This document shows positions 8,252 through 24,887 of a DNA stretch of 25,300 nt, one piece after another. This DNA is from a virus (taxonomy: Duplodnaviria; Caudoviricetes), in IMG/VR virus record IMGVR_UViG_3300042288_000537, positions 1 to 25,300 of that record; one strand, written 5' to 3'. A program made the translations under genes and the position numbers. How positions within the stretch are numbered: position 1 is the stretch's first letter; each line of letters starts with the position of its first letter. The notes under the pieces are model-generated. The model did not search any database, had not been told where the DNA came from, and worked only from the letters and a program-made list of their open reading frames with translations.

Positions 8252-9451
8252 TCAAATTACCTTGAATAAAAACGGCTTATGTCGCCGCCGTGCGGCGAGC
8301 GCAAGCGCAAGCGCGCACACGCCGTCGTCGTGCCCCGATTGGGCTTCATACGTAACCCTACCCGCGTTATATCGGAAACCGAAGGAATCCAATTCGGCGC
8401 GCAACCAACCGTCGGGGTAGCGAACCTCGCGAGATTGAATCGCGGCGGATAGCCCCTCCATTATCTGTTGCTTGCTTGCGTTCGTGAATTTGAACCCTTC
8501 CGCGTTGCGGCACGCGCGGCATATGTCTTCCGTGATTGGGTCGCCTACCCCTGTTGAGTCGATATACGCCGTCGTATTCGCAACGATGCGCGCGACGCGT
8601 TCGCGTGTCGCGCCCCAATCCGATTGCCAACGCTCCAACACGCACACGGCGCCCGACGAATCGACGCCACAACAGACCGTCCAATCGTGCGATTTCGCTA
8701 GGTCAACGCCGAACGCGACAGGCGCGGCCGTCGATAGCGGCGCGACACACGCGCGGATTGCGTCGCCGCCGAAAGGGTTGCTACCGTCGTCGGTTGGTTC
8801 GGCTAGGTATAACTCGCGAAAGACATTGTCGGGAAGAATCGCGCGCGCCTCTTCGATTTCGCGGGCGTCCAATACGCCGCCGTCTACGGCATCCCACGCG
8901 GTAAGGCGGTGGTAGGCCATATTCGGCGCGCCGCCTTCCGCCATTCGCGCCAATCGGTATACCCAATTCTTGCGGCCCTTTACGTTGCCGATGATTCGTA
9001 GCGGCCCGCGCGTCGCGGTGAGTGTCGAACGCACCGCGTTGAACGCGGCTTCGGGGCACCGCGTAGCCTCATCAATTACCGCCGCGCTTACGTCGTCGCC
9101 GAAGAGGCTATCGGGGTTGTCGGCGGATTTGAACCATACGCGCGAACCGTTCGCGAGTCGCACGCACAATTCGGAGTCGTTGTCGTCCCACGTGCGTTTG
9201 GCGGGGTCGGCCTGTCGTAGCATCGTCTGCAACCGCATATAGCCGACGGTTTTCGTAACGTGGAACGTGGGCGCAATCCACCAATAATTGCCGCCGCGCC
9301 CGTTCCACGCGGCCGCGAACAACCACAATAGACACCCCGCGGTTTTCCCCGATTTCGTGCTAGCCTCAATTATCACGATACGCGCGGGGTCGCATATCGC
9401 GGCGAATTGCCGCGGGTACATAGCGGGCAAGGTCGGCGGCGTAACAATCAC
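8252..9451 (-). CDS. terL: Terminase large subunit
   Basis: Walker A ASTKSGKT, WWIAPT, Walker B AAVIDEA, RNase H-like nuclease FGVDLAKSHD and HDDGVCALALA. Directly precedes the portal. Confidence 0.93.
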   Translation of the reverse strand: MIVTPPTLPAMYPRQFAAICDPARIVIIEASTKSGKTAGCLLWLFAAAWNGRGGNYWWIAPTFHVTKTVGYMRLQTMLRQADPAKRTWDDNDSELCVRLANGSRVWFKSADNPDSLFGDDVSAAVIDEATRCPEAAFNAVRSTLTATRGPLRIIGNVKGRKNWVYRLARMAEGGAPNMAYHRLTAWDAVDGGVLDAREIEEARAILPDNVFRELYLAEPTDDGSNPFGGDAIRACVAPLSTAAPVAFGVDLAKSHDWTVCCGVDSSGAVCVLERWQSDWGATRERVARIVANTTAYIDSTGVGDPITEDICRACRNAEGFKFTNASKQQIMEGLSAAIQSREVRYPDGWLRAELDSFGFRYNAGRVTYEAQSGHDDGVCALALALAARRRHKPFLFKVI

Positions 9452-9980: not shown

Positions 9981-10864
9981 TGTTCCACCACCAAAACATA
10001 GCCCGCGCCACCCGCGCCGCCGTCGCCCGCGCGCGCGTTGAAGCAAGCGCCGCCACCACCGCCACCGCTACCGCGGCCGCCCGCGCCGCCGTTGCCCGCC
10101 ACCGCGGCATTGTTGCCACCGCCACCGCCGCCGCCCGTGCCGATGCCACGCCAAAGCCCTGTGACGCTACCCGCCGTGCCCGCCACGCCCGCGCCGCCGC
10201 CCGCGCCGCCACCGCCGCGCGTCGTCGTTTGCGAATTGACGCTACCGCCCGCGCTACCCGCTAAACCCGTTAGGCTTGCAAGGTCGAACGGCCCGCCGCC
10301 GCCGCCACCCGCGCCCGAAAACCAACCGCGAACGCCGCCCGTAGACACCGACGCGACGTTGGACGCGCCGCCCGCGCCGTACGCGACGCCGAACGCCGCT
10401 ACGGCCGTGCCGCCCGCCGCGTTTGCGTTGCTACCCGCGACACCACCGCCGCCACCCGCGACAGATAGCGCATCGAACGACGTAGTACCACCGCCGCCGC
10501 CATTGCTCGCGGTCGTGCCACCCGCGCCCAACGTGCCGCCCGCGGCGATTGTGACGGTAACGGACGTCGCCACGTCGGACGCTAGCAACACGACGACACC
10601 GCCGCCGCCGCCCGCGCCGCCACCACCCCCGCTACGGTCGGCCGCGGTCGTGTTGACGCGCGCGCCACCGCCACCGCCACCACCGCCGCCGACTAGGTAG
10701 ACGGTTATGGTTTCGGCGCCCGCCGACTTATAGAACGTGCCCGACCCCGTAAACTCCGTAACTGTCGCGCCGTAAACCAACCCGTCGCTACCGACGCCGA
10801 TACCCGCGCCCGTGGCTAGCGGTAACGTGTTGGGGTCGATTGTGGTTAGGTAGCGTGGGTTCAT
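9977..10864 (-). CDS. Glycine-rich virion fibre-like protein (polyglycine-II type domain)
   Basis: TEFTGSGTF...ITVYLVGGGGGGGGG...VTVTIAAGG...GGAGGAGYVLVVEQ. Confidence 0.75.
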   Translation of the reverse strand: MNPRYLTTIDPNTLPLATGAGIGVGSDGLVYGATVTEFTGSGTFYKSAGAETITVYLVGGGGGGGGGARVNTTAADRSGGGGGAGGGGGVVVLLASDVATSVTVTIAAGGTLGAGGTTASNGGGGGTTSFDALSVAGGGGGVAGSNANAAGGTAVAAFGVAYGAGGASNVASVSTGGVRGWFSGAGGGGGGPFDLASLTGLAGSAGGSVNSQTTTRGGGGAGGGAGVAGTAGSVTGLWRGIGTGGGGGGGNNAAVAGNGGAGGRGSGGGGGGACFNARAGDGGAGGAGYVLVVEQ

Positions 10865-11106
10865 TCGTTCCGCCTTGCACGGTCGTAGCCGTATTGAATT
10901 TCGAACGCGCGAAGCGCCGCGATATGGACGCGCCTATCTCGCGATGCGGGTAGACGAATTCCCGCCAATCGGCCCGAATCAATCCACCGCGAAACTTGCG
11001 TGGCCGACACCCCTAGCCGCGCGGCTATCTGTCCCGTGGTGAACCATTCGCGCGCGGGCGGTAGTGGTTCGTTCCCGCGGGGCGGTAGGTTACTCCGCGC
11101 GCGCAT
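10861..11106 (-). CDS. Excisionase/MerR-like (HTH_17) DNA-binding protein
   Basis: WFTTGQIAARLGVSATQVSRWIDSGRLAGIRLPASRDRRV. GGAGG lies 9 nt upstream of the ATG at 11106. Confidence 0.8.
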   Translation of the reverse strand: MRARSNLPPRGNEPLPPAREWFTTGQIAARLGVSATQVSRWIDSGRLAGIRLPASRDRRVHIAALRAFEIQYGYDRARRNE

Positions 11107-11365
11107 CGTCAGCATCCTCCACGAACGACGGCGGCACGGCGTACCAACCTTCGGGAATCGTTACGCGGTTTGCCGATAGCGTCCATTCGCCGTCGGCGTA
11201 GGTATAGACGCGGCCGCTAATCGTCGGCCCTATCCGAATCGGAGCGGCTTCGGGTACTAGCACCGTTCGCGCGCAACCAATCGCGGACACGGCCACCGCC
11301 GCGGCGCAAAAGGCCACGATTCGTAGGCGCGTCGGTCGCGGTGGTTGTTCCAATGTACTTTCCAT
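11090..11365 (-). CDS. Putative lipoprotein (o-spanin-like)
   Basis: Basic N-region, hydrophobic stretch IVAFCAAAVAVSAIG|C resembling a lipobox, Pro-rich mature part. Overlaps 11217..11423 in another frame. Confidence 0.55.
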   Translation of the reverse strand: MESTLEQPPRPTRLRIVAFCAAAVAVSAIGCARTVLVPEAAPIRIGPTISGRVYTYADGEWTLSANRVTIPEGWYAVPPSFVEDADDARAE

Positions 11366-11423
11366 AGGTGGCTAGGATTGATTGCAGCACGGCCGACGCG
11401 AACGCGGCTAGCGCCGCGATCAT
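11217..11423 (-). CDS. Small N-terminally hydrophobic protein (i-spanin-like position)
   Basis: MIAALAAFASAVLQSILATYG...; its ATG overlaps the holin-like stop (ATGA). Confidence 0.5.
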   Translation of the reverse strand: MIAALAAFASAVLQSILATYGKYIGTTTATDAPTNRGLLRRGGGRVRDWLRANGASTRSRSDSDRADD

Positions 11424-11632
11424 TTCGCGCCCGCGCGTTCGGACGACACGCGGTTGTCGCGTGCGGCGATTAGCCCTAGCCCCGCCATAACCGCGGCCGC
11501 GACCGCGCCCCAATCGGGAATCGTTACGGGGTCGTTATCGAACAACGCCGTAACCGCGGTACCGACCGCGACCACGATTGCCGCGACACCCGCTACCGTT
11601 GTACGCCACGAACCGCCTTTGATTGCGTCCAT
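11420..11632 (-). CDS. Putative holin (2 TM segments, basic C-terminus)
   Basis: SWRTTVAGVAAIVVAVGTAV...WGAVAAAVMAGLGLIAARDNRVSSERAGAK. Confidence 0.6.
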   Translation of the reverse strand: MDAIKGGSWRTTVAGVAAIVVAVGTAVTALFDNDPVTIPDWGAVAAAVMAGLGLIAARDNRVSSERAGAK

Positions 11633-11634
11633 TG

Positions 11635-11901
11635 TTACCGCCTTTCTTCTAGTCGTTCGATGCGCGCGCGTAGCGCGTCCAATTCACGTTGGCTACCCGC
11701 GTCGGCCGTCGCGTTCGCTATCTGCGCCTTCGCCAAATCCTGCACGATGCTAGCCAATTCTTCCACGCGGCCGACGGTGTTCGATAGTTGAAAATCGCGC
11801 CGCCCGACTTCCGACCCCAACCACCATAGGCCACCGATAAGCGTAAACAATTGCGCTACGTTCACGGTTCTATCCAACGCGGCTAGCGGGTGCGGCTTCA
11901 T
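11635..11901 (-). CDS. Single-TM plus coiled-coil protein (holin/antiholin-like)
   Basis: MKPHPLAALDRTVNVAQLFTLIGGLWWLG...ELDALRARIERLEERR. The ATG at 11901 overlaps the resolvase stop; the ORF-track extension to 12189 is spurious. Confidence 0.6.
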   Translation of the reverse strand: MKPHPLAALDRTVNVAQLFTLIGGLWWLGSEVGRRDFQLSNTVGRVEELASIVQDLAKAQIANATADAGSQRELDALRARIERLEERR

Positions 11902-12242
11902 AGTAGCGGGTTTCCGTCGGCGCTTGCGAGGGCGACGCGTAGCGCCGTTAGGTCGGCGAGTCGTAGCATTACCACCCATTCCGTATCTCCATCCTCGCGA
12001 CAAAGCACGGTCGGCACCGCACCCGCGACCGCGTCGCGTTCGGCTTGCCGTAGGAATTCGATAGCGGAGATGCGCGCGCGGCGCTTGATTTCCAAATGAA
12101 CGGGCGCCGTAGTGGCCACGTCGGCGTCGCCGTGTCGCCCTGTCCGTTGGGCGGTGCGATGCGCGGGAAGCCCCGTAGCGGCCGTCCACGCGGCCGCGGC
12201 TTCGCGCTCCCCGACGGCACCCTTTGTACGCGAATTCGGCAT
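11898..12242 (-). CDS. Hjc-like PD-(D/E)XK Holliday junction resolvase
   Basis: NSRTKGAVGERE...GDADV...HLEIKR...VPTVLCREDGDTEWVV. Confidence 0.8.
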   Translation of the reverse strand: MPNSRTKGAVGEREAAAAWTAATGLPAHRTAQRTGRHGDADVATTAPVHLEIKRRARISAIEFLRQAERDAVAGAVPTVLCREDGDTEWVVMLRLADLTALRVALASADGNPLL

Positions 12243-12286
12243 GGCGCTAGTATCGGCGCGCGGCGGCGTTACGTCTACCCGTAACG
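12243..12286 (-). promoter_or_regulatory. Putative late-operon promoter giving a leaderless mRNA, with an inverted repeat over the -35
   Basis: TAGACG (12277-12272)-N17-GATACT (12254-12249), then 6 nt, then the ATG at 12242. CGTTACG-N6-CGTAACG at 12267-12286. Confidence 0.55.
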
Positions 12287-12321
12287 AAAACGCACGCGCT
12301 CGGAACGTCCGAACGCGTGCG
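12287..12321 (-). terminator. Intrinsic terminator ending the cassette array
   Basis: CGCACGCGTTCGGA-CGT-TCCGAGCGCGTGCG followed by TTTTCGTT. Confidence 0.8.
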
Positions 12322-12345
12322 CGGGTAAGAAAAGATATCGGTAGT

Positions 12346-12609
12346 CTAGCGCGATTCGGCGGCGGCGCGCGCGGCGTAATCCTCCGCGCAACGCTTCGCG
12401 CGTTCTATCGCGTAGGGGTCGCGCGCGTTTTCGGCGTACGCGTGGACGTGTTGCCCCTTGACAGACACGGCGACTAGCAACGCCGAAGCGCCCGATACGA
12501 AATCGAGCCGAACGGGTAGCCCGTGGATGCGCGCGACGATTGCGGATTGCCAACCGTTGCCAACGCTATCCCAAAGGGGCAACGACCACGTAGCGTCGGC
12601 GGTGTTCAA
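12346..12609 (-). CDS. Hypothetical early protein (cassette 1, gene 2)
   Basis: TTG start overlaps the upstream TGA; 87 aa with globular-looking composition. Confidence 0.65.
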   Translation of the reverse strand: MNTADATWSLPLWDSVGNGWQSAIVARIHGLPVRLDFVSGASALLVAVSVKGQHVHAYAENARDPYAIERAKRCAEDYAARAAAESR

Positions 12610-12866
12610 TTGCCACCCCCGATTTCCGTAGCGGCAAGGTGCGCGCGAAGCCCGCGCACGGTTTCACGTTGAACGGTTTTATACGCGACGTTGACGCGGC
12701 GACGGAACGCGTAGCCCGCGTCGTCGAAGCCCGCGCCGCGACTTGTGGCGAAAGCCCAACCCGCGGCGATCATGTCCGCCATAGCGTAATTGTTCGCGGC
12801 GATATGCGCGGCGCACGCGGCGCGGCACGCGTTCGTAAGTTCGGTGGTCGTTGCGTTCGTGTCCAT
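12606..12866 (-). CDS. Hypothetical early protein (cassette 1, gene 1)
   Basis: AGGGG RBS 6 nt upstream; lies directly behind a repeat promoter/leader. Confidence 0.75.
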   Translation of the reverse strand: MDTNATTTELTNACRAACAAHIAANNYAMADMIAAGWAFATSRGAGFDDAGYAFRRRVNVAYKTVQRETVRGLRAHLAATEIGGGN

Positions 12867-12994
12867 TGTGTACCCCTGTCGTTGTCGGCGTCTGCCGCCG
12901 CGGCCCGTCGCCGTAGTGGCGACGCGGTGAGTATAGAGCGGCCCGCGCGTGTGTCAAGCCGCATTGGACAGAATCCGACAGAATCGCAAAAAGA
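12867..12994 (-). promoter_or_regulatory. Repeated promoter-leader unit, copy 1
   Basis: Tandem GATTCTGTC(G/C) motif, TTGACA (12957-12952)-N16-TATACT (12935-12930), two-hairpin leader, AGGGG RBS. Confidence 0.88.
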
Positions 12995-13016
12995 ATTCGG
13001 CCCCTTGCGGGGCCGA
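12988..13016 (-). terminator. Intrinsic terminator of cassette 2
   Basis: TCGGCCCC-GCAA-GGGGCCGA then ATTCTTTTT. Confidence 0.8.
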
Positions 13017-13037
13017 TGTCCGTAGCGTGGTCGTCGA

Positions 13038-13229
13038 TTAGGCGCGCGCTGTCGCGGCCGCGGCGTCGGCGACGACGCGGCGCCACGCGCGAATCGACAG
13101 GCCGACGGTGCGGAACTTGCGGGCGAGTCGTTGCGCGTCGCGTTCGTTGTTGCCCGTCAACCACGGGCGCACGAATTCGATAACGGCGGCGGGCGTGGTG
13201 TTTGCGGTGTCGGTCGTGGTTGCGTTCAT
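13038..13229 (-). CDS. Hypothetical early protein (cassette 2)
   Basis: 63 aa, AGGGG RBS, bounded by a repeat promoter and a terminator. Confidence 0.75.
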   Translation of the reverse strand: MNATTTDTANTTPAAVIEFVRPWLTGNNERDAQRLARKFRTVGLSIRAWRRVVADAAAATARA

Positions 13230-13347
13230 TGTGTACCCCTATCTTCGCGGTCGGCCCGCGTGGCCTGTCGCGTTCGTCGCGACGGGGTAAGTATAGCGCG
13301 CGGCGCGCGCGTGTCAACCCGCATTGGACAGAATCCGAAAGAATTCT
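13230..13347 (-). promoter_or_regulatory. Repeated promoter-leader unit, copy 2
   Basis: TTGACA (13317-13312)-N16-TATACT (13295-13290); 41 bp of the leader is identical to copy 3. Confidence 0.88.
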
Positions 13348-13537
13348 ACCGCGCGGGCACGACGACGAACCCGCCGCGCTCCACCGCCGCGGATTCCGCG
13401 GCCGACAGGTCGGCGAACACGCACGGGCAATCGAACACGACCCGCGTACCGTCGGCGTCGCGGTCGAACACGTCGCCCGTGCCGCGGCAATCGGCGCACG
13501 TTGGGCACGGCCGTAGCGTTACGGGGGCTACGTTCAC
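13346..13537 (-). CDS. Small Cys-rich putative Zn-ribbon protein (cassette 3, gene 2)
   Basis: CPTCADCRGTG...DCPC. GTG start overlaps the upstream TGA, with an AAGGGG RBS. Confidence 0.65.
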   Translation of the reverse strand: MNVAPVTLRPCPTCADCRGTGDVFDRDADGTRVVFDCPCVFADLSAAESAAVERGGFVVVPAR

Positions 13538-13761
13538 GCCGCACCCCTTTCTACCAATTCCCACGTATTCATCCCTTCAATAACGTGCGCGACCGCGGCG
13601 CGGTATGTCGTATCGTATGACAATTCGCCAACATACATTCGTCGGCACAATTCATCGTTGCAAGCCACGTATCGGTTTACGGCGGTCGTGCGGCGTCCGT
13701 GTGGCGCCGACACAATCCACGCGTGCATTTGTTCGGGCGTCATTTTTCGCGCTGTTGACAT
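13534..13761 (-). CDS. Hypothetical early protein (cassette 3, gene 1)
   Basis: 75 aa, AGGGG RBS behind the repeat leader. Confidence 0.75.
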   Translation of the reverse strand: MSTARKMTPEQMHAWIVSAPHGRRTTAVNRYVACNDELCRRMYVGELSYDTTYRAAVAHVIEGMNTWELVERGAA

Positions 13762-13884
13762 TTGGTACCCCTATCTTCGCGGTCGGCCCGCGTGGCCTGT
13801 CGCGTCGTGCGACACGCGGAGTATAGCGCGGCGCCGCACCGTGTCAACCGCCATTGGACAGAATCCGACAGAATCGCAAAAAGA
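13762..13884 (-). promoter_or_regulatory. Repeated promoter-leader unit, copy 3
   Basis: TTGACA (13847-13842)-N16-TATACT (13825-13820); 33 bp of the upstream block is identical to copy 1. Confidence 0.88.
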
Positions 13885-13908
13885 CACGCGCCCCCGTTCG
13901 GGGGCGCG
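13878..13908 (-). terminator. Intrinsic terminator of cassette 4
   Basis: CGCGCCCCC-GAAC-GGGGGCGCG then TGTCTTTTT. Confidence 0.75.
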
Positions 13909-13929
13909 CGGCGCCGTCGGGCGCGGGGG

Positions 13930-14322
13930 TTAGTTCCAATCGCGTTCGGCGTCGCGGTGCGCGTCCACCGCCATTTCGTCGGCGCACGCGGGCGCGGTTG
14001 CCCACACTTGACGCGACGCCCATACCGACGTCCGCCACATAGCGCGGTTGCGGAGTACGCCCGCGGCGGCGCAATTGCGCGCGGCGGCGTATCCGAAGCC
14101 CGCGACGCACACGCCGTCGGCGTTGTAGAGTCGCGTACGGAACTGCGACACGCCGTGGTAGTTACGTTCTAGGCGCTCTTCGAAGTAGCCGCCCGCGCGC
14201 ACAATCTCCGCGGCGCGAAGCGCGCGACCGCGAAGGGTGGCGAATCCCGCGGCGGCGCGCGCGGCGCGCATTTCGGCGGCGGTTGGTTCGGTCGTCGTGG
14301 CGGTCGTTTCGGTGGTGAGCAT
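13930..14322 (-). CDS. Hypothetical early protein (cassette 4)
   Basis: MLTTETTATTTEPT...; ATG at 14322 with AGGGG RBS. The ORF-track start 14373 lies inside the leader. Confidence 0.75.
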   Translation of the reverse strand: MLTTETTATTTEPTAAEMRAARAAAGFATLRGRALRAAEIVRAGGYFEERLERNYHGVSQFRTRLYNADGVCVAGFGYAAARNCAAAGVLRNRAMWRTSVWASRQVWATAPACADEMAVDAHRDAERDWN

Positions 14323-14445
14323 TTGTAACCCCTGTCGTCGGCGTCGGCCGCCGTGGCCTGTCGTGCGAATCACGACACGCGAAGTATAGACAGACTTCGG
14401 CGCCTGTCAACCCACGTTGGACAGAATCTAGAAAGATTCTCAAAA
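14323..14445 (-). promoter_or_regulatory. Repeated promoter-leader unit, copy 4
   Basis: TTGACA (14410-14405)-N16-TATACT (14388-14383), two-hairpin leader. Confidence 0.88.
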
Positions 14446-14473
14446 GACACCGCCCCGCGGGTGCGCGGGGCGG
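14442..14473 (-). terminator. Intrinsic terminator of cassette 5
   Basis: CCGCCCCGCG-CACC-CGCGGGGCGG then TGTCTTTT. Confidence 0.75.
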
Positions 14474-14500
14474 CATCGGCGCGCGGGCGGGCGCGCGTGG

Positions 14501-14785
14501 TTACGCGTGGGGGTCGCGGTACGAATCGGCGCGGCCGACGTAGGCGCGGCGCCCGTTGCCGTCGGCGGCGTCATAGACGCCCTGTTGTTCGCGGCTTGCC
14601 ACGTAGCGCGAAATTGTCCCATCGCCGCCGCGCAGACATAGCGCGATTGATAGCGGGCGCGTGATGCTAGACGCTGCAACCGCCGTAACGATTGCGGGGT
14701 ATCGGTCGCTACCGATACACACGGTAGCGGGCATACCGACCGCGGGCGCGACGTTCGGAACGCCGTAGCGGGCGTGGGCGCTCAA
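14501..14785 (-). CDS. Hypothetical early protein, beta-rich (cassette 5, gene 2)
   Basis: TTG start overlaps the upstream TGA; P.VGMPATVCIGSDRYPAIVTAV...YRDP. Confidence 0.65.
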   Translation of the reverse strand: MSAHARYGVPNVAPAVGMPATVCIGSDRYPAIVTAVAASSITRPLSIALCLRGGDGTISRYVASREQQGVYDAADGNGRRAYVGRADSYRDPHA

Positions 14786-15045
14786 TAGCCACCCCCAATC
14801 GCGACCAATGCCGAAGGATGCGCGAACACGGCGCCGTCGTAGTGGTCGTGTTCGGGGATTGGTTCCAACCAATCGCCCGCCACAATGTCGGCGTCGGCGT
14901 CGATCTTCGCGAAGTGCGGCGCGATCTTGAAAAGCCCGCCCATTTTGCTGTCGGCCGCGATAACGCGCGTAACCGTAGCGTTGAACGGACGCGGGCTATT
15001 AGGCACGTTGACGACGACGTGTTGCCCAACAGTAAACTTACACAT
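14782..15045 (-). CDS. Hypothetical early protein, SH3-like start (cassette 5, gene 1)
   Basis: MCKFTVGQHVVV...ATVTRV; AAGGGG RBS. Confidence 0.7.
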   Translation of the reverse strand: MCKFTVGQHVVVNVPNSPRPFNATVTRVIAADSKMGGLFKIAPHFAKIDADADIVAGDWLEPIPEHDHYDGAVFAHPSALVAIGGGY

Positions 15046-15170
15046 AGCGAAACCCCTTGCAATCGGCGTCGGCCGCCGCGGCCTGTCGCGTTCGTCGCGA
15101 CGCACACACAATAGCAACACCCGCGCCCGTGTCAACCCACGTTGGACGAATTCCGTAAGAATTCCGAAAA
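15046..15170 (-). promoter_or_regulatory. Repeated promoter-leader unit, copy 5
   Basis: TTGACA (15135-15130)-N16-TATTGT (15113-15108), same leader architecture; abuts the tRNA 3' end. Confidence 0.82.
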
Positions 15171-15244
15171 TAGCCGCGGCGGGATTCGAACCCGCAACGA
15201 CGGGTACCTAAAACCCGCGCGTCTACCGATTGCGCCACGCGGCC
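15171..15244 (-). tRNA. tRNA-Leu (anticodon UAG), short variable loop, CCA not encoded
   Basis: GGCCGCG-TG-GCG CAATCGGTAGA CGC-G-CGGGT TT[TAG]GT ACCCG-TCGTT-GCGGG TTCGAAT CCCGC-CGCGGCT-A; all four stems pair. Confidence 0.9.
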
Positions 15245-15299
15245 GACAGTCTCGCCCCAAACCCCGCGCACGCCGTGCGCGCGCGCGTTCGGGGCCGCA

Positions 15300-15950
15300 T
15301 CATTCCCTACCCATTCCGAATAGCACCCCTTGCGCTAGACGTTCGGCTATCGCGTCGCAATAGCCTTTGTCGATTTCGATACCGACCGACGGCACGCCAC
15401 ACAATCGCGCCGCGACTAACACCGAACCACTACCCGCGAACGGATCGACGACCGATGCCGCGTCAGGGAACATATCGGCGAGGATACCCGCGAACAACCT
15501 AACGGGCTTTTGTGTCGGGTGGACGCGGCGCCCGCCGTCGTCGTTGACGACCCCGCCATGTAGGATTCGGTACATTCGTTCAAACCCGCTACGCTTTGAC
15601 GTCCACGCCATTTCGAACGGTGCGCCCAACATACGGTCGGCGGCTTCGGTTAGGCGCTTGTCCCAACAAATCCAACGCCCGCGATGCGGCAACAGGTGCG
15701 GGAAACAATGCGCCCCGAACACCACCGCGTCGTCGGCGCAATCTAGGCGCGTGAATAGCCACCGCGCCATTGTGTCGTCGTCGTCGCCGTGAATCGTCGC
15801 CCATTCGCGCGTCGTCGCCGTATGGTGGAAATTCACGCCGTAGGGCGGGTCGGTGAGTAGCACCGACGCGCGGGCTAGGTTCGGCAGGATATCGCGCGCG
15901 TCGCCGTGGTATAGCGTCGTTAGGCCGTCGCGGTAGTACGGTTCAACCAT
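15300..15950 (-). CDS. Orphan N4-cytosine/N6-adenine DNA methyltransferase (beta class)
   Basis: TLYHGD, LLTDPPYG (motif IV), HPTQKPV, VVDPFAGSGS (motif I), GIEID. Confidence 0.92.
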   Translation of the reverse strand: MVEPYYRDGLTTLYHGDARDILPNLARASVLLTDPPYGVNFHHTATTREWATIHGDDDDTMARWLFTRLDCADDAVVFGAHCFPHLLPHRGRWICWDKRLTEAADRMLGAPFEMAWTSKRSGFERMYRILHGGVVNDDGGRRVHPTQKPVRLFAGILADMFPDAASVVDPFAGSGSVLVAARLCGVPSVGIEIDKGYCDAIAERLAQGVLFGMGRE

Positions 15951-16149
15951 TGGACAAATGCCGCCGACACTCCGCTACCGCGGTTCGTGCCATCATTGGT
16001 AGCCGCGCGGCTTGCGCGTCGATTAGTTCCACCAATTCCGCGTCGGTGGTGTCTGCGGGTACGCGGATTCGCACCGATAGCCACGCGGTCGCGTGTTCGG
16101 GGTCGCGCTTGACATTCGCGCGCGTTTCGCGCGGTTCCCACGCCGTCAC
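15943..16149 (-). CDS. Hypothetical protein
   Basis: GTGA overlap at 16146-16149; fills the operon gap. Confidence 0.6.
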   Translation of the reverse strand: MTAWEPRETRANVKRDPEHATAWLSVRIRVPADTTDAELVELIDAQAARLPMMARTAVAECRRHLSNG

Positions 16150-16517
16150 AGACTCCCCGCACCGTCCATATGCTGTTTGCATTTGCTATTCTCCGATTGC
16201 ATTTCGAACGCGACGCGTTCGACTAGGTCGAGCCAATTGCACCTATCCCGCCACGGTAGCGCGCTCCAACGTTCCCAATCCGCTAGCGCGGCCGTGTGGC
16301 TACGGTTGATTGCGGCGGCTACGTCGGGCCACGACGGCGACGGGCGCGCGCATTCGCGTAACGCCGCTACTAACACCATTCGCCAATCTCGCGACGCCAT
16401 AGCGCGTAGCGCGGCGGTTTCCCGCGGCGTATACGTTTCGGGGCCGTGGATGCGGTTAGGGTTCGCGGCTAGGTAGCGCACCGCGTCGCCGATGTCGCGT
16501 TGTGTATAGGTGGTCAT
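16146..16517 (-). CDS. Putative HTH protein resembling DnaA domain IV
   Basis: PSWPDVAAAINRSHTAAL resembles the S.PEIG..F.RDHTTV motif. ATGA-coupled. Confidence 0.5.
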   Translation of the reverse strand: MTTYTQRDIGDAVRYLAANPNRIHGPETYTPRETAALRAMASRDWRMVLVAALRECARPSPSWPDVAAAINRSHTAALADWERWSALPWRDRCNWLDLVERVAFEMQSENSKCKQHMDGAGSL

Positions 16518-17347
16518 TCGGTACAGGTACAGGGTATTTGCGATTCTTCGGGGTCGTTGGTATCTGGCTCCCCGAACAATTCGGGTTGTATTCGAACCTG
16601 TACTAACAATTGCGCGTAATTAGCGCGGTCATCGCGGAAGGTGCGCCCAAATTCTTTTTCGGCGTCGATCCACCATTGGGCGCGGTCAGGTTCTCGCCTT
16701 ATTACGCGTTCTAGTAGTCGTTTCCCCTTCAAAAAACATAGGTCGCAATTTCCGAACGCCCTGTCGTCGTTCGGCAACCTCAAATCGAAATTTTGAAGTT
16801 TCCAGAATGCGCGAACGTCGTCTAGCGTGTGTCCCGCTTCGGCCATAGGGCACACGTAATCGAAACCCATTCGTTCCGAACCCGCGACACGATGCACGCG
16901 GCGCGGTTCATCCGCGCGCAACCCTACCGCAAGCGTTGCATCCACGAACCCCAACGTTTTTGCATACTTCGCGATTGGTTCAACCTTCAACCATTGGGTA
17001 CATAGGCGACGTAACGGGGTTGGCATCATGCGTCGGGATCGCATCATGTCCAAAAATGGTTCGCCGTTACGACTAGCGGTATCGTAATTGCACACCCTAT
17101 AGCGTGATTCCGCGGAAGAATCGTATTCAATCCAATGCACGTCTACCCCGAAATTTTCGGAGCATTCGCGCACGAATTGCAAGGTAGCGGCGTGTTCGCG
17201 GCCAGTGTTGGCGAACACGATTAGGCCGTGGGTAGGAAACTTGCCCCCGTGGGCTTCTATGATTTTTGCGAGCATAAAAGCCGACGTGCGACCACCGCTA
17301 AACGACACCACAAAAGGTTCGTCGATTTTGTAGGGGTTGCGATTCAT
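16514..17347 (-). CDS. PAPS-reductase/DndC-like PP-loop family protein with Cys motifs
   Basis: VVSFSGGRTS (PP-loop), FANTGREH, R.CT..LK, GLRADEPRR, GNCDLCFLK, C-terminal CTC. The ATG at 17347 overlaps the upstream stop. Confidence 0.85.
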   Translation of the reverse strand: MNRNPYKIDEPFVVSFSGGRTSAFMLAKIIEAHGGKFPTHGLIVFANTGREHAATLQFVRECSENFGVDVHWIEYDSSAESRYRVCNYDTASRNGEPFLDMMRSRRMMPTPLRRLCTQWLKVEPIAKYAKTLGFVDATLAVGLRADEPRRVHRVAGSERMGFDYVCPMAEAGHTLDDVRAFWKLQNFDLRLPNDDRAFGNCDLCFLKGKRLLERVIRREPDRAQWWIDAEKEFGRTFRDDRANYAQLLVQVRIQPELFGEPDTNDPEESQIPCTCTE

Positions 17348-17688
17348 TCGACAATCTCCCAAACGCGCGCCATGCGTCCCGACCGCGTCGGGCGTTGCCC
17401 GTTCGCGCGAATAACGCCGCACCGCATAAGTTTATTGATAGCGGCCGACGCGCTTTGGTGCGTCATACCCAACCGCGCTTCGATTTCGTCGCACGTTGAC
17501 GGATTCTCCGCGATTGCGCGGCGAATGAATTCGATAGCCGAATCGGGCGCCGCGCGGTACGCGGCATCCTGCACATCCCATCGTGTCGCCTGTCGCGCGG
17601 TCGCGCGCGGCGGGTTGTCGATTGCGAATCGGAATATCCCCAATTCGTCGCCGCGGGTTCGTCCGTGGTTGTATTCAATCATTCGCAA
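17344..17688 (-). CDS. Winged-helix DNA-binding protein
   Basis: TCDEIEARLGMTHQSASAAINKLMRCGVI...RPTRSGRMARVW. Confidence 0.75.
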   Translation of the reverse strand: MRMIEYNHGRTRGDELGIFRFAIDNPPRATARQATRWDVQDAAYRAAPDSAIEFIRRAIAENPSTCDEIEARLGMTHQSASAAINKLMRCGVIRANGQRPTRSGRMARVWEIVE

Positions 17689-17944
17689 GCGCCTTTCGTA
17701 GTCTGCGGATTTCGTCGGCGGCTTCGGCCCATTCGCGACCTAGCCGCGACAGGCTAGCGCCGTCGATTGGTACGGTTTCGTTTCGTCGCGTCGCGTATCG
17801 GCTAGCGGCTACGGATACCGTGCCGTTCCATCGCGCGCGGGCTTCTATGTCGATAGCGGAAAGGGGCACGTGGAATATCCCCGCACCCTCAACAGGCGGC
17901 GCCACGTGCGCGTCGTCGTCGTCGTGTGTTGGCGTGTCGATCAT
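17675..17944 (-). CDS. Hypothetical protein
   Basis: ATGA-coupled; ends EAADEIRRLRKAL, a motif shared with 18703..18963 (AADEIERIRAE). Confidence 0.65.
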   Translation of the reverse strand: MIDTPTHDDDDAHVAPPVEGAGIFHVPLSAIDIEARARWNGTVSVAASRYATRRNETVPIDGASLSRLGREWAEAADEIRRLRKALAND

Positions 17945-18195
17945 TCGCGCGGCCTATCGGCCAATTGCCACAACAGCACGCCGACCACCCCCAACGCGAC
18001 GACCAACAGCACCAACGACGCGCCGACGTCGGCGCAACAATCCCGCGGCGCGGGCGATGGCTCCACCACGCGCGCGGGTTGTTGAGTCGTTGCCGCGTCG
18101 TCGTTCCACACATTCGGCTTTCCGTACCGATATTGCGCGAACGGGTCGGCGGGGTTCGTCCAAACGCTGTTGGTTGTTGTGGTGCGTTGTGTCAT
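17941..18195 (-). CDS. Hypothetical membrane protein (C-terminal TM)
   Basis: SLVLLVVALGVVGVLLW; ATGA overlaps on both sides. Confidence 0.65.
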   Translation of the reverse strand: MTQRTTTTNSVWTNPADPFAQYRYGKPNVWNDDAATTQQPARVVEPSPAPRDCCADVGASLVLLVVALGVVGVLLWQLADRPRE

Positions 18196-18518
18196 ACGTT
18201 CGCGGGTTCGGGCTTCGACTTGCGCGGGCGCCCCGCGGCTTTCTTCACAATACCACCCGTGAACTTATATTCCCGCATCACGGCACCGCCGTTCCGTCGT
18301 AGGTCGCGTACCCTCAACATCGGTTGGCGAAGGTTGGCGGCTTCGCACGCGCGCGCGAAACTTGCATCGGGAATTCGGCCGCCGTTCAACCAATTGCAGA
18401 CGGTTTGCGGCGACACGTTCACCAACGCGGCGAGTCGGCGAACGCCGATAGCGGCAAGCGCTTTGTATGCGTCGTCGTCGGGCGAGAGTGTCCAAAAAAT
18501 TTCGACGTGTGCATTCAT
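18192..18518 (-). CDS. Cro/XRE-like HTH regulator with C-terminal AT-hook-like GRPRK
   Basis: GVRRLAALVNVSPQTVCNWLNGGRIP...AGRPRKSK. The ATG at 18518 overlaps the upstream stop. Confidence 0.75.
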   Translation of the reverse strand: MNAHVEIFWTLSPDDDAYKALAAIGVRRLAALVNVSPQTVCNWLNGGRIPDASFARACEAANLRQPMLRVRDLRRNGGAVMREYKFTGGIVKKAAGRPRKSKPEPANV

Positions 18519-18706
18519 TGTTCGTATCCAATCACCGCGCGCATAGCGCGGATTGTGAGTTGTCCTAGCCAAATCCAATACCACGCGCACGCGGTGAGAA
18601 TCGCGGCTACCGCCGTAATTCGCACGAACACGAACCCCACGGCGTATAGCCACGGGTACGCATCGTCGCCCCTCATTTTGTTGTCGTCGTCGTAGTCGGG
18701 CATCAT
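18515..18706 (-). CDS. Small membrane protein
   Basis: Long hydrophobic segment WLYAVGFVFVRITAVAAILTACAWYWIWL; coupled overlaps. Confidence 0.6.
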   Translation of the reverse strand: MMPDYDDDNKMRGDDAYPWLYAVGFVFVRITAVAAILTACAWYWIWLGQLTIRAMRAVIGYEQ

Positions 18707-18963
18707 GCGTTTTTACCCTTGCGCGGTCGTTGTTCGCGTTCGTAGCAATCCCACCCGCGTAACTCCGCGGTACGTTGCAGCGTGTGGAAAATCTTTTTCG
18801 TGTGCCAACATACAAGCCGCCGCGCGTGGTCGCGTTCGGCGCGTATCCGTTCGATTTCGTCGGCGGCAAATTTCAGCCCGTCGGAAACCTCTTGCACCCC
18901 TTGTTCGTCGGCGCCGATTGCCCACGCGCGAAGCCGCGCCACGATTTCGTCGGTTTCGTTCAT
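18703..18963 (-). CDS. Hypothetical protein
   Basis: MNETDEIVARLRAW...AADEIERIRAERD..RR.VC...AELRGWDCY; ATGA-coupled. Confidence 0.65.
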   Translation of the reverse strand: MNETDEIVARLRAWAIGADEQGVQEVSDGLKFAADEIERIRAERDHARRLVCWHTKKIFHTLQRTAELRGWDCYEREQRPRKGKNA

Positions 18964-19163
18964 CGTTGCCCCTTCGGCTTGCGCCCGTCGCGTTGCATTC
19001 GTTCGACGACTTCGCCGCGCCAAATCTCAATTTCCCGCGGGAATTCGAACGCGACGCGCGCGCGGCCGTCGCCGCGGATAGTTACGGTAATCGCTCCCAA
19101 CGCGACGCCGTCGCGCAACACGTCAAACCGTTGTTGGTCGGCTACGGTGATTACCAACGCCAC
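18960..19163 (-). CDS. csrA: CsrA/RsmA-like translational regulator (divergent)
   Basis: MALVITV...ITVTIRGDGRARVAFEFPREIEIWRGEVVERMQ aligns by eye with CsrA (MLILTR...VTV...[26 protein letters not shown]). 67 aa, AGGGGG RBS. Confidence 0.65.
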   Translation of the reverse strand: MALVITVADQQRFDVLRDGVALGAITVTIRGDGRARVAFEFPREIEIWRGEVVERMQRDGRKPKGQR

Positions 19164-19327
19164 GCGGCACCCCCTGTCGGAAGGGCCGCGCCGCCCGCGG
19201 AGATGCGCCGCGGGCGGCGTGGCGTGGGGAATGGGCGCATAGCGCCCCCGACGCTACCGCGCGTCCTGCGCGGGATTCCCGCTACGTCGGCGGGGGTTGC
19301 GTGCATTGTAGCCGTATGTTCGTTCAT
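19151..19327 (-). CDS. Possible small Arg/Pro-rich protein
   Basis: Manually translated 58 aa MNEHTATMHATPADVAGIPRRTRG...PRRPRRIS...WRW. AAGGGG RBS; fills the operon gap. Confidence 0.4.
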   Translation of the reverse strand: MNEHTATMHATPADVAGIPRRTRGSVGGAMRPFPTPRRPRRISAGGAALPTGGAAWRW

Positions 19328-19396
19328 TGGTACCCCTTCGCGGCGTTCGGTACGCCGTAACCGTGCGGCGTGTGCCGCGTGTCTAGTGCCATTGTA

Positions 19397-19873
19397 TCAC
19401 GATTCAAGCGCCGCGCAAACGATGAACACGTGCGCCCGTTGCCATTCTTCGATTTTCGCGGGTAGTGGTTCGACGGGTAGCCATTTCGCCGCGCGCATTC
19501 GCGCGACGGCGTCGGCCACGCGGTCGCGCGGTTCGATGCGTAGCCGTTCCACGCACCGCGCGCGGTCGCGCTCCAACGTCGCGACGATGTCGGCGCGTTC
19601 GGCGTCGGGTGATTTCTGCGGCTTCGCGGCTTCGCGTGCGTTGCCCGTGTTTGCAATCCGACGGTAAACGGCTAGCAATTCCGACAGGCGGAACACGGTA
19701 CTAGTGCATTCCACGCGGTAGTCGTCGATTGCGGCGGCCAACCACCGTTGGTTGAGATTGGACAGGCGCCCGACCGCCAACCGCCGTTCGTCGTCGGTTG
19801 GTTGGTACCGCGGCCATAGGCCGTTGATTCGTTGGCGGTTGGTTTCCCATGTTGCGTCGGCGTGTTCGGTCAT
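19397..19873 (-). CDS. Replication-module protein (helicase loader/inhibitor-like position)
   Basis: Helical 158 aa, ATGA-coupled directly after the initiator. Function is positional only. Confidence 0.55.
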   Translation of the reverse strand: MTEHADATWETNRQRINGLWPRYQPTDDERRLAVGRLSNLNQRWLAAAIDDYRVECTSTVFRLSELLAVYRRIANTGNAREAAKPQKSPDAERADIVATLERDRARCVERLRIEPRDRVADAVARMRAAKWLPVEPLPAKIEEWQRAHVFIVCAALES

Positions 19874-20358
19874 ATGCCACCCTTCCGCGCGTGCGCGCGT
19901 AACACACGCGTAGCGTGTGTATCTTCTCTTCTCTTCTCTTCTCTAGGTAACGCGGTTGTAACGTCGCATTTAGGTAACGCGGTTGTAACGGTCGAACCGT
20001 TACGCGCGCGGTGAGTCGCGACGCGGCGCGCGGTTTCGGCGCGACTCTTCGCCGTGGCGCCATTGTGTTCGTCGAATCGCGGGATAGCGGGCGAACCGTC
20101 GGACACGTCCACCAACCACCCCACGCCGCGAAGCGCGGCCGACAGCGTTAGCCGTTCGGCAATCGGCCCGCCGCCTAACGCGTCTACGTCGGCCGTCGTG
20201 TGGTAACGCAACACGCCATCGGTGGTGAATTCATCCGCCCACGACCACAACGTAACCAACGCACCGACGACCGTTGCAGGGTGCAAGCCCGTTGCACGCG
20301 CGACGTACGCTACCCGTGGGTCGTTGTGTAGGTTCGTGCGTACTTTGATCCATGCCAC
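19870..20358 (-). CDS. Phage replication initiator (lambda O-like organisation)
   Basis: MAWIKVRTNLHNDPRV...VVGALVTLWSWAD...GWL...IPRFDEHNG...R...HR, followed by an internal repeat and an REEKRRE tract. GTG start at 20358. Confidence 0.75.
   Translation of the reverse strand: MAWIKVRTNLHNDPRVAYVARATGLHPATVVGALVTLWSWADEFTTDGVLRYHTTADVDALGGGPIAERLTLSAALRGVGWLVDVSDGSPAIPRFDEHNGATAKSRAETARRVATHRARNGSTVTTALPKCDVTTALPREEKRREDTHATRVLRAHARKGGI
19922..20003. repeat. Putative replication origin: iterons plus polypurine/polypyrimidine tract
   Basis: TAGGTAACGCGGTTGTAACG twice (19944-19963, 19971-19990), inverted CGTTAC (19998-20003), and (TCTTC)n at 19922-19943, all inside the initiator gene. Confidence 0.75.
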
Positions 20359-20359
20359 G

Positions 20360-20734
20360 CTATCCCCCAATCCTGCGCGCGCGCGCAATCGCGACCGCAC
20401 GGCGCACGACGTCGAACCTCATCGAATCGTCGGCACACTCCCACAACAGCAACGCCACGCGTACGACGTCGGGCGCGACGCGTAGACGCCGTGCCACGAC
20501 GTCGCGACGCGGCGACAGGTGCGCGGGCATCATGTCGAACACGATCCCCGCCACCGCGATTTCCCGCGGTAGTTCCGTATCGGGCCACACGACGTCGGCC
20601 GCGGCGAGAGATTCGGCAAGCGTAAACGGTGCCGACGACGGGCGACGGCCGACGACGTCGGCCGCGGCCGTCGGGGGAAGTTCCCCCGACGCCGCGACAG
20701 GGTTAGAACGGCAATTCGTCATCGGCGCCCCCAT
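20360..20734 (-). CDS. Hypothetical protein (start uncertain)
   Basis: Fills the gap between ERF and the initiator; possible HTH (RRDVVARRLRVAPDVV). Confidence 0.5.
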   Translation of the reverse strand: MGAPMTNCRSNPVAASGELPPTAAADVVGRRPSSAPFTLAESLAAADVVWPDTELPREIAVAGIVFDMMPAHLSPRRDVVARRLRVAPDVVRVALLLWECADDSMRFDVVRRAVAIARARRIGG

Positions 20735-21701
20735 TCGTCGTGGGTGCCACGGTTCGGACGTCTACCACCATTGGCATTTTGCTACCGCGCGATTGCACAA
20801 CAGGGATAAGCGTTTGCCCAACCAATTCGGGTAGCCACGTCGCTATCGCGTCGGCCACGACGTAGTCGGTTACTTCGCCGTTCGACAGGAAGCCCGCGAC
20901 ACGGAAACTACGGTTTCCGACCGTTCGCGTTTCCAATCGGTGCAGCACCGCGGCCGCTATGGCGGTAGGTTCGCCCGTAGCGGCGTTCCCCGCGTCGGGG
21001 GCGGCCGTCGGCGGGTTCGGCACGTCGGACGCCGTAGCGGGCATCGTAGGGGCATTTCCCGCAAGCGCCGAATTTACCGCCGCGGCGCCCGTCGAACGTG
21101 GCGCGCGCTTCGGGCCGTCGGTCGGTGCCGACGTCGCGGGCGCGACGCGGTCGCGTACCCCGTGCCGCGTTTCGTTACGGTCGTCGTTGCGACCGTCCAT
21201 ATGCCCCGATTCATCCTCGCGAGGTAGGCACAACAGGTCGCGAAGCCAATAGGAAAGGCTAGTGGTCAACGCGCTAGCCACCGCCTTATCGACGGGGCGC
21301 CCCTTTTCAACCACGATAGGCCACACCACCACCGATTCGGCCGATTCGCCCGTCCAACCGTGGCACACGGTTAGACGCGACTGCACGTACAGACCGTCGG
21401 CGACGATTTCCCAACCCGTGCGGCGGGCGACGACGCCGCCACGCTGCAACGCGTCGCGGCACGCCGAAATCATCCCTTCCGCCGACGTATACGCGTAGCG
21501 GTGGAACGTATTCCGCGAATCCTTCGATACGCCCGATATCGCGCCTTGCGCGACCAACAGGCCGTCGGAGAGAGACACCGTACCCGAACGCGGGCACGCG
21601 GTCGGCGCCGACGCCATCGGCAACGGCGGACTATCTTCTATCGGCGTGGCGGGATGCGACACGCCACGCGCCATTCGGCTAGCGCGTCGTTGGTCGTGCA
21701 T
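20703..21701 (-). CDS. ERF-family single-strand annealing protein (start uncertain, 21701 or 21617)
   Basis: AQGAISGVSKDSRNTFHRYAYTS.E.....R.AL...G...H..TGES...ASALT....Y.L..LL.LP.ED; acidic DDELPF tail. Confidence 0.75.
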   Translation of the reverse strand: MHDQRRASRMARGVSHPATPIEDSPPLPMASAPTACPRSGTVSLSDGLLVAQGAISGVSKDSRNTFHRYAYTSAEGMISACRDALQRGGVVARRTGWEIVADGLYVQSRLTVCHGWTGESAESVVVWPIVVEKGRPVDKAVASALTTSLSYWLRDLLCLPREDESGHMDGRNDDRNETRHGVRDRVAPATSAPTDGPKRAPRSTGAAAVNSALAGNAPTMPATASDVPNPPTAAPDAGNAATGEPTAIAAAVLHRLETRTVGNRSFRVAGFLSNGEVTDYVVADAIATWLPELVGQTLIPVVQSRGSKMPMVVDVRTVAPTTNGGADDELPF

Positions 21702-21715
21702 TGGTTCCGAAGGAT

Positions 21716-22516
21716 TCAAGCGCCACCCCCAATCGCCCACGCGGGAAGGGGCAAATCTTCGATGAACCCCGAATAGCCCGACCATACGCCCGACGCGGTC
21801 GCGGCCGCGTACGCGTTGCACGCGGCTTCAATCGTCGGCAACATCGCGTCCAAATCCGCATCGGCTAGGCCGTACGTCGCGACACAATGCGGCGCCGCCT
21901 TTTCGACGGCAACCAACACCGCACCAGTAACCCGTCGGCCGTTCGCGCGCAGAATCTCGCGATAGAACGCCATTTGGAGATAGTACCCGTAATCAACGGC
22001 CGACCGCGCGAACGCGCGCGGCGCGGCGCACGTGGTCGTTTTCAGGTCAACCAACATACCGTCGGCGCAATAGGCGTCTACGCGACACTTGCACGGCACC
22101 CCGAATAGGTCGGCGGTAAACACACGTTCGGCGAACGTCACGCGCGACATAATGAGGCTAGCCGCGTTGTGTTGTTGCATCGCGGCGACCATCGCATCTA
22201 CGCCCGCGTATTCCGATTCGTCTACGACGGTTTTCCCGACGTTCAACGCCGCGAACGCTTCGGCCGCCTCTTTCCCCGCCTTTGTGCGGCGGTCGAATTT
22301 CGGGCTAGTCGCGAATTCGTTCGCGAAATCCGCGGGGCGAAGCGCGGCACAATGCAACGCGCGGCCGACGCGAAACGCGTCGGTATCCTCTTCGGCGCTG
22401 TTCATACGCGCGAACAGGTGCGCGGGGGTTTGACTTGCTAGGGTTTTCACCCACGACGCGCGCAAGCCCGCAAGCGCCGCGTATTCGGCTTCCGACATGA
22501 TTAGCCCGCTATTCAT
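21716..22516 (-). CDS. RecE/exonuclease VIII-like PD-(D/E)XK nuclease (DUF3799 type)
   Basis: GRALHCAAL, DRRTKAGK, KCRVD...VDLKTT, YGYYLQMAFY, VAVEK..PH. Confidence 0.88.
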   Translation of the reverse strand: MNSGLIMSEAEYAALAGLRASWVKTLASQTPAHLFARMNSAEEDTDAFRVGRALHCAALRPADFANEFATSPKFDRRTKAGKEAAEAFAALNVGKTVVDESEYAGVDAMVAAMQQHNAASLIMSRVTFAERVFTADLFGVPCKCRVDAYCADGMLVDLKTTTCAAPRAFARSAVDYGYYLQMAFYREILRANGRRVTGAVLVAVEKAAPHCVATYGLADADLDAMLPTIEAACNAYAAATASGVWSGYSGFIEDLPLPAWAIGGGA

Positions 22517-22629
22517 CGCGTACCACCCTTCCGACGCGTAGCGCGTCCACGTTGCAAGAATTCACGTTCGACCGCGCATCCGAAAAGGAAGGCGCACCCG
22601 ACGACGACCAACAATGCGAGAATGTCCAT
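22513..22629 (-). CDS. 38-aa membrane peptide
   Basis: Manually translated MDILALLVVVGCAFLFGCAVEREFLQRGRATRRKGGTR. AAGGG RBS; the stop overlaps the exonuclease ATG. Confidence 0.55.
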   Translation of the reverse strand: MDILALLVVVGCAFLFGCAVEREFLQRGRATRRKGGTR

Positions 22630-22681
22630 TATTAGAACCCTTGCGCCGTCCGTCGGCGCGACGTTCCGCCCGTGTGACGGG

Positions 22682-22708
22682 TAGCCCGCCGCGAATCGCG
22701 GCGGGTTG
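22682..22708 (-). terminator. Strong hairpin after the first early gene (no U-tract; attenuator or processing site)
   Basis: AACCCGCCGCG-ATT-CGCGGCGGGCT. Confidence 0.5.
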
Positions 22709-22713
22709 GCCTA

Positions 22714-24882: not shown

Positions 24883-24887
24883 TCGCG

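Follow-up and report, generated by a model that had tools for sequence, protein, structure and literature searches.

We examined a 25,300-nucleotide (nt) stretch of DNA (the window, used here for the whole stretch; IMG/VR record IMGVR_UViG_3300042288_000537, positions 1 to 25,300), and found that the short leader carried in front of several of its small genes is, on sequence evidence, a real and strongly covarying RNA that is absent from Rfam. An initial annotation had described this leader as a two-hairpin unit in six copies. Both stems were recovered in our analysis, but the conserved unit is not the hairpin pair; it is a minimal H-type pseudoknot of about 20 nt, linked in position to the AUG and formed between the linker and the loop of the second hairpin.

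All six minus-strand copies were found at the positions given in that annotation, each as a sigma70-type promoter cassette composed of a GTCCAA box, TTGACA, 16 nt (17 in copy 6), TAnnnT and, after exactly 6 nt, GTCG. Downstream of the -10 box come hairpin 1, a purine, GGC, 2 nt, a 5-bp stem-loop (hairpin 2), AGGGG as the Shine-Dalgarno sequence (SD) and ATG, giving leaders of 52-57 nt with a structured part of about 36-39 nt. The predicted transcription starts (+1) at 12923, 13283, 13813, 14376, 15101 and 23018 were reproduced, as were the hairpin 2 stems (CGGCG/CGCCG in copies 1, 4 and 5; CGCGG/CCGCG in 2 and 3; CCGCG/CGCGG in 6) and loops (GCCGA; GCAGA in copy 1; GCCCGAA in copy 6), with AGGGG 4-8 nt further on. 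The count of six was incomplete, as two more copies of the core lie at 22644-22663 (copy 7) and 19342-19362 (copy 8). Of the 10 promoter sites found in 10000-25300 (4.3 +/- 2.3 in shuffles), the seven with the highest scores include all six cassette promoters. Folding-energy z scores for copies 1-6 were -2.1, -3.6, -2.2, -1.0, +0.5 and -0.3, and both hairpins appeared in the minimum-free-energy fold of four of the six. Evidence from folding energy alone is thus weak; what supports the structure is covariation in relatives.

A terminase search retained 80 of 261 loci, including a clade with terminases 72-100% identical. Promoters listed in this clade without a structural filter revealed the same leader with altered letters, and a further 27 viral and 34 metagenome loci came from pattern scans in which the pseudoknot bases were unconstrained. 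We parsed 395 distinct promoter-downstream sequences, 68 of which passed, and kept 66 after dropping two chance hits (L400, a pattern match within coding sequence, and L311, an A/T-run hairpin). Because only sequences with a perfect hairpin 2 stem (S2) and a hairpin 1 of 4 bp or more passed the parse, the pairing evidence for these two helices is partly circular; the pseudoknot helix (S1, linker with loop) was unselected. In the 66-sequence alignment, 98.1% of 857 cells were paired, with two-sided changes at all 13 pairs, compared with 17-52% in slid controls; for the pseudoknot helix, 98.5% of cells were paired, with two-sided changes at all three pairs. RNAalifold, unaided, recovered both hairpins. 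The covariation first seen among the window copies extends to a larger alignment that supports both stems and the pseudoknot. One member, L382, has a broken stem S2.

The linker triplet exactly complemented loop bases 1-3 in 60 of the 63 copies with a five-nt loop, and in 10 of 11 copies among the non-GGC linkers; none of 100,000 permutations reached 60 matches, a test that relatedness inflates. Eight S1 triplet pairs occur in the relatives (GGC/GCC, GCC/GGC, ACC/GGT, GGT/ACC, CGT/ACG, GGG/CCC, CGG/CCG and CCG/CGG) and back the linker-loop pseudoknot that the initial annotation had suggested, while the poor fit it had remarked on in copy 1 corresponds to a single mismatch (GGC/GCA). The 4-bp S1 forms (GGGC/GCCC, GCCC/GGGC and GCCG/CGGC) have a 3-nt last loop, as H-type geometry predicts for a 4-bp S1, and the pairing of loop with flank through compensatory changes places the predicted structure in the H-type class. 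Members beyond the training set turned up with a covariance model and with a descriptor scan.

The core comprises a 3-bp S1, a 2-3-nt loop L1, a 5-bp S2 and a GA loop, and its end lies 13-20 nt from the AUG (S2 end to ATG, 14-20 nt in 66 of 66 parsed leaders). Within the clade, an upstream partner was present for 78 of 83 distinct 5-bp NNNGA hairpins located 13-20 nt before an SD-led ATG, compared with 14 of 246 such hairpins elsewhere in the clade and none of 15 start-linked ones outside it; three of the five partnerless start-linked hairpins are members with one mismatch or wobble. When no distance limit was set, the first ATG fell at 13-20 nt for 69 of 86 knotted hairpins; in seven of the others, which are members, a stray ATG precedes the SD, and ten have no leader context, which equals the background rate. 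At the orthologous site after the replication module, four different S1 pairs occur in five phages. Copies whose promoter has decayed or is lacking still retain the knot (window copy 7, L166:4285 and G007:6969). In copy 7, an insertion upstream of the knot appears to have moved the former GGC away from S2; in its stead, a newly matched pair, CGT/ACG, stands at the correct place 2 nt before S2. The distance from +1 to the knot varies, while that to the AUG is bounded. Only GA and the geometry are invariant in the knot, which suggests recognition by shape. Pairing between the loop and the SD was rejected, and with it an SD-sequestering riboswitch of the preQ1 type, as 63 of 66 leaders have the loop complement in the linker and 3 have it in the SD region, with GA alone invariant. 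Pairing of the discriminator with the SD on read-through RNA was no better than permuted, and a passive SD-insulator role was without support from nested folding.

Hairpin 1 does sit at the predicted 5' end, where it had originally been placed; among 89 parsed promoter copies, 77 have it beginning 5-6 nt past the -10 box. A pyrimidine occupies -1 in 61 of 66 leaders and G occupies +1 in 65, as the first paired base. The sequence of this hairpin is fully replaceable with pairing preserved, at a length of 15-18 nt. In B. subtilis, RppH is reported to require at least two unpaired 5' nucleotides (PMC3997798). As a separate observation, GTC..GAC hairpins follow closely behind strong sigma70 promoters in many unrelated phages (L225-L348, L422-L541), with multi-copy cassettes in L237 and L311; for a general phage rule that sets such a hairpin at +1, the figures at 6 versus 11 nt spacing diverge, with about 950 versus about 300 estimated stretches but stems of at least 5 bp in 46 of 120 versus 39 of 83. 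In three unrelated phages (L325:355, minus strand; L248:1547, minus strand; L225:1501), a promoter and a +1 hairpin are accompanied by what may be a small pseudoknot of different sequence, perhaps by chance; the one in L325 ends 14 nt upstream of an ATG.

Two complete 30-32-kb genomes carry 7 and 11 sites, with all true sites in non-structural regions and none in the head module; an additional G-U site before an 8-codon open reading frame (ORF) is dubious. Downstream of the knots, 100 distinct protein sequences fall into 50 clusters, with a median length of 85.5 aa, and none of the 12 tested matched Pfam. Cassette sets differ among phages with terminases 98-99% identical, and L151 is chimeric, its copy-5 promoter being joined to a copy-4 gene, which suggests recombination between the repeats. 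The PeSL cassettes of the T4-type phages RB49 and phi1 are similar in that a strong sigma70 promoter, a terminator stem-loop and an SD are repeated before small orphan genes, and in both systems cassette content varies between near-identical phages (PMC2839356). A strong promoter and SD repeated before orphan genes are likewise present here, and predicted terminators stand beside the promoters of copies 1, 3, 4 and, weakly, 2. However, PeSL stem-loops are described as terminators upstream of or inside the promoter, whereas the present leader is a separate structure within the transcript, and the word pseudoknot is absent from that paper. Divergent back-to-back leader cassettes were also seen in relatives (L162:5217-5267, L163:105-155, L165:4942-4996 and L607/L612), unlike the window, where all copies are on one strand.

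Scans beyond the clade came out negative or no better than chance. In Rfam 15, the window returned only the tRNA and one chance match at E<=1, copies 2 and 3 returned three matches far below threshold at E<=10, and ten related loci returned two tRNAs and five sub-threshold matches at E<=5, in line with the proposal of a structured RNA without an Rfam match. In GTDB, 12 loci matched the pattern and none of them fitted the structure. The covariance model had no match in 43 loci (L178-L220) that either have terminases 52-58% identical or lack the early region, nor any below E 0.01 in five whole records of the distant or no-early-region type. In a promoter-free scan, S2 was perfect in 15 of 15 cases in the clade versus 3 of 39 matches outside it, which is chance level, and among those 39 only L551 also had an SD and ATG in place. 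In this unrelated phage, a perfect knot at L551:1001-1042 lies 17 nt before the ATG of a 289-aa gene, scaffold-like by appearance, that follows a portal-like ORF. We treat this knot as no more than a lead, with about 0.1 such cases expected by chance among the 39. No description of the leader was found in the literature consulted, including the portions covered of Weinberg 2017, Fremin 2023 and a 2026 language-model preprint. For the Fremin 2023 viral RNA catalogue, the part compared held none of six 15-nt motifs (three files) and none of six contig ids (file 4).

We favour, with a probability of roughly 0.4, the reading that this is a portable leader in which hairpin 1 would cap the 5' end and the knot would act as a loading enhancer, of the 30S or protein S1 type, for predicted early mRNAs. 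The first transcribed base would be the G 7 nt past the -10 box, the tagged messages would be early, hairpin 1 would block RppH-type attack on the 5' end, the knot would dock the 30S, likely via protein S1, at the adjacent SD, and the net effect on output would be positive. The upstream edge of the 30S footprint lies at about -20; the AUG-tied spacing, the survival of promoter loss and the place of the knot at that edge argue for a post-transcriptional role, and the strong promoters, SDs and terminators point to high output. Protein S1 is reported to bind H-type pseudoknots at nanomolar affinity and to dock rpsO mRNA on the 30S (PMC7708055), and the timP pseudoknot to raise initiation even with an open SD, with mRNA level also up (PMC11228461). 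The tisB and timP leaders resemble ours as described in these sources (PMC7708055, PMC11228461), with a 5'-leader pseudoknot outside the SD that could recruit protein S1 or the 30S and in which pairing rather than sequence matters. Each of them serves one toxin mRNA in which the leader is long and the SD sequestered, and the standby region of tisB lies about 100 nt upstream of the ribosome-binding site (RBS), whereas the present knot spans 20 nt, lies 2-8 nt from an unsequestered SD and precedes about 50 unrelated gene families. Its anatomy is compatible with an S1-dependent leader pseudoknot of the tisB/timP type.

Several points weigh against an enhancer. The knot is absent from the capsid gene, whose product is required in large amounts; predicted SD accessibility was 0.44, versus 0.44 at other starts (nested folding only); and a 3-bp S1 is marginal, with a mismatch or wobble in 3 of the 63 five-nt-loop copies, copy 1 among them. 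In a reporter study in live bacteria, a compact pseudoknot at most 10 nt from the SD cut translation (PMC10018353), so the sign of the effect could be negative. The enhancer role would also depend on the S1 and RNase set of the host. A bolder version, which we consider tentative and on balance doubtful, is that the knot may be an undescribed phage-wide tag about 17 nt before the start codon, a shape-read 20-nt portable enhancer that would dock the 30S platform or protein S1 and favour early mRNAs over those of the host.

The foremost alternative, less probable but to be taken seriously, treats the knot as a shape-read operator, which a phage or host protein would stabilise by the SD to shut early mRNAs at the early-to-late switch through steric block, entrapment or a RegB-like cut. 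Such a role would suit the restriction to non-structural regions in both complete genomes, the marginal 3-bp stem, which fits conditional stabilisation, and the distance of about 2-8 nt to the SD, within the reported attenuating range of a compact pseudoknot (PMC10018353). In T4, gp32 is described as binding a leader pseudoknot and RegB as inactivating early mRNAs at GGAG (PMC3014915), but the SD here is variable (GGAG in 31, AGGGG in 19 and AAGGG in 13 of 66), unlike the RegB site, and the conserved early ORFs gave helicase-loader-like or HTH-like (helix-turn-helix) leads only, with no RNA-binding regulator found among them. Like our leader, the T4/RB69 gene 32 operator places an H-type pseudoknot of two stacked stems in a phage 5' leader, ahead of the RBS; it is reported to be autogenous, for one gene, with a long AU-rich tract (PMC3014915), whereas the present leader has neither such a tract nor a single regulated gene. 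Slightly less probable, and likewise to be taken seriously, is a knot serving mainly as a 5'-to-3' exonuclease barrier, like an exonuclease-resistant RNA (xrRNA), that would back hairpin 1 and shield downstream cistrons after processing. Promoterless copies do lie between cistrons, right after a stop codon and behind further hairpins, and very small two-hairpin/pseudoknot folds of plant-virus coremin RNAs are reported to stall Xrn1 (PMC6546385; PMC10321173). These coremin (xrRNA-C) and xrRNA-WCC elements also have two small hairpins, the first starting with GUC, a short spacer and a 3-bp pseudoknot stem (PMC6546385, PMC10520033, PMC10321173). In coremin, however, the first loop (YGAD) is described as pairing with the 3' end of an 8-10-nt spacer, whereas our spacer, mostly of 6-7 nt, pairs with the second loop, leaves the first free and lies at mRNA 5' ends; with YGAD/YGNNAD in 0 of 66 loops, identity with xrRNA-C was rejected. 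Moreover, the 5' strand of the knot forms only 3 bp, a pure barrier would not need a 20-nt upper limit to the AUG, and the role would call for RNase J in the host.

An antitermination element of the put or nut type, modifying RNA polymerase, is very improbable, even though the leader is a promoter-proximal two-stem unit and long operons follow copies 1 and 6. The initial annotation had proposed a boxB-like site, and lambda boxB does share a 5-bp stem and, in most copies, a G...A pentaloop. Lambda nut sites are marked by a GNRNA pentaloop and an upstream boxA, but GNRNA fits 2 of 66 loops, and no boxA-like 6-8-mer (four boxA-type motifs) was matched on the window minus strand; the proposal was not supported. 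The loop letters instead covary with the linker, each cluster gene has its own promoter, terminator-like hairpins lie between cassettes, several of which end in a predicted terminator of their own, and the spacing is tied to the AUG, with the knot persisting without a promoter. HK022 put is likewise a promoter-proximal, two-stem nascent RNA, of about 70 nt, described with a 5' A3-G7 duplex and A64 and as requiring sequence-specific bases such as G35 (PMC9378689). In our leader the structured part spans about 36-39 nt, nearly all stem positions vary and no polymerase-contact bases are conserved, so identity with put was rejected, a separation made by description rather than alignment. Least probable of all are DNA-level repeats, whether palindromic operators or recombination homology, with incidental pairing. 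In favour of this, almost every pair is Watson-Crick, 56 of 66 leaders have GTCG..CGAC as a palindrome and the cassettes appear to have been shuffled through the repeats, but hairpin 1 varies in length and sequence with its pairing kept, and sense-strand G-U pairs occur (L168, L166). Double-stranded palindromes could not produce the interleaved linker-loop covariation, so this reading fits poorly.

The window is a 25.3-kb tailed-phage fragment (G+C 62%) with its genes on the minus strand. Head and packaging genes (terminase at 8252-9451, portal, protease, capsid) fill 1-11.1 kb, followed by a RusA-like gene, the small orphan-gene cluster at 12.6-15.0 kb and tRNA-Leu, and, up to 22.5 kb, methyltransferase, PAPS-reductase-like, replication-initiator, ERF and ExoVIII-like genes. 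No cultured phage was more than 32% identical to this phage, and in blastn against cultured phages the tRNA was the sole match among the best 20 of 151 rows. All features below are on the minus strand. In copy 1, a sigma70-type promoter (TTGACA-16-TATACT, 12930-12957) precedes the leader (12866-12923) with hairpin 1 at 12923-12907, the pseudoknot at 12905-12886, the SD at 12877-12873 and the ATG at 12866 of an 86-aa ORF (12606-12866) that matches no known family; an intrinsic-terminator-like hairpin with a U-tract (12997-13016) lies just upstream of the promoter. Copy 2 (13229-13317) has its promoter at 13317-13290, hairpin 1 at 13283-13267, pseudoknot at 13265-13246, SD at 13240-13236 and ATG at 13229 (63-aa ORF, 13038-13229), behind a weak terminator-like hairpin (13348-13363). 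Copy 3 (13761-13847; promoter 13847-13820, hairpin 1 13813-13799, pseudoknot 13797-13778, SD 13772-13768, ATG 13761) leads a 75-aa ORF (13534-13761) and follows a strong terminator-like hairpin with a U-tract (13885-13910).

Copy 4 (14322-14410; promoter 14410-14383, hairpin 1 14376-14360, pseudoknot 14358-14339, SD 14333-14329, ATG 14322) leads a 130-aa ORF (13930-14322); upstream of its promoter, folding revealed a terminator-like G+C hairpin followed by a T run (14442-14476) that is not in the scan list. Copy 5 (15045-15135; promoter 15135-15108, hairpin 1 15101-15085, pseudoknot 15083-15064, SD 15057-15053, ATG 15045) leads an 87-aa ORF (14782-15045), and tRNA-Leu(TAG) (15171-15244) lies directly upstream of its promoter. 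Copy 6 (22962-23053; promoter 23053-23025, hairpin 1 23018-23004, pseudoknot 23002-22980, SD 22975-22971, ATG 22962), with a 4-bp S1 (GGGC/GCCC) and loop GAA, heads the recombination/replication operon. In the newly found copy 7 (22629-22702), a hairpin-1-like stem (22702-22688) and the insertion precede the pseudoknot (22663-22644; S1 CGT/ACG) and the ATG (22629) of a 38-aa hydrophobic ORF just before the ExoVIII-like gene, with no consensus promoter. Copy 8, also new (19327-19396), sits at an intergenic site after the replication module, with a -10-like TACAAT (19396-19391), a hairpin (19378-19365), the pseudoknot (19362-19342; S1 GGT/ACC) and the ATG (19327) of a 58-aa ORF. In both, the knot lies 14 nt before an SD-led ATG.

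Further observations concern the surroundings of the cassettes. With the -35 box TTGACA, 6 nt further downstream, the GTCCAA box (12963-12968 in copy 1, at the same place in all six promoters) makes up an imperfect inverted repeat, and it is preceded by GATTCTGTC-like repeats phased at about 10 bp; the arrangement is conserved across the clade and may be a regulator site or UP-like element. A conserved HTH-like gene (18192-18869, minus strand; PHROG repressor match at E 1e-6, Cro/YdaS-like leads below 0.9) is a candidate regulator for this box. A conserved 158-aa gene after the replication initiator (19397-19873, minus strand) has nearest family-assigned clusters that hint weakly at helicase loaders of the G39P/lambda P types. 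The gene behind the copy 7 knot (22513-22629, minus strand) represents a 37-44-aa type with a hydrophobic N-terminus and basic tail, found just before the ExoVIII-like gene in the window, L162:4440 and L165:3927; similar peptides occur in L166:4255 and L397:1726. All of these lie behind a pseudoknot, with little sequence similarity from lineage to lineage. Word avoidance is strong across window positions 1-25300: AGCT, CCGG and TTAA are missing, AG/CT reaches 0.47 of the expected level, and both CAG/CTG and GAG/CTC are under-represented. Leucine codons (CTA 88 and TTG 111 versus CTG 21) fit the phage-encoded tRNA-Leu(TAG).

To our knowledge, known bacterial and phage leader pseudoknots each control one gene. 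Here, a knot of about 20 nt is a portable cassette part, reused before about 50 unrelated small-gene families. Its natural compensatory changes are unusually clean and supply disrupting and restoring variants with which to ask how initiation or decay responds to a structure at the border of the 30S footprint. If the knot acts positively, it would provide a compact expression part for G+C-rich hosts, and the finding bears on how phages may favour, or later silence, their early mRNAs.

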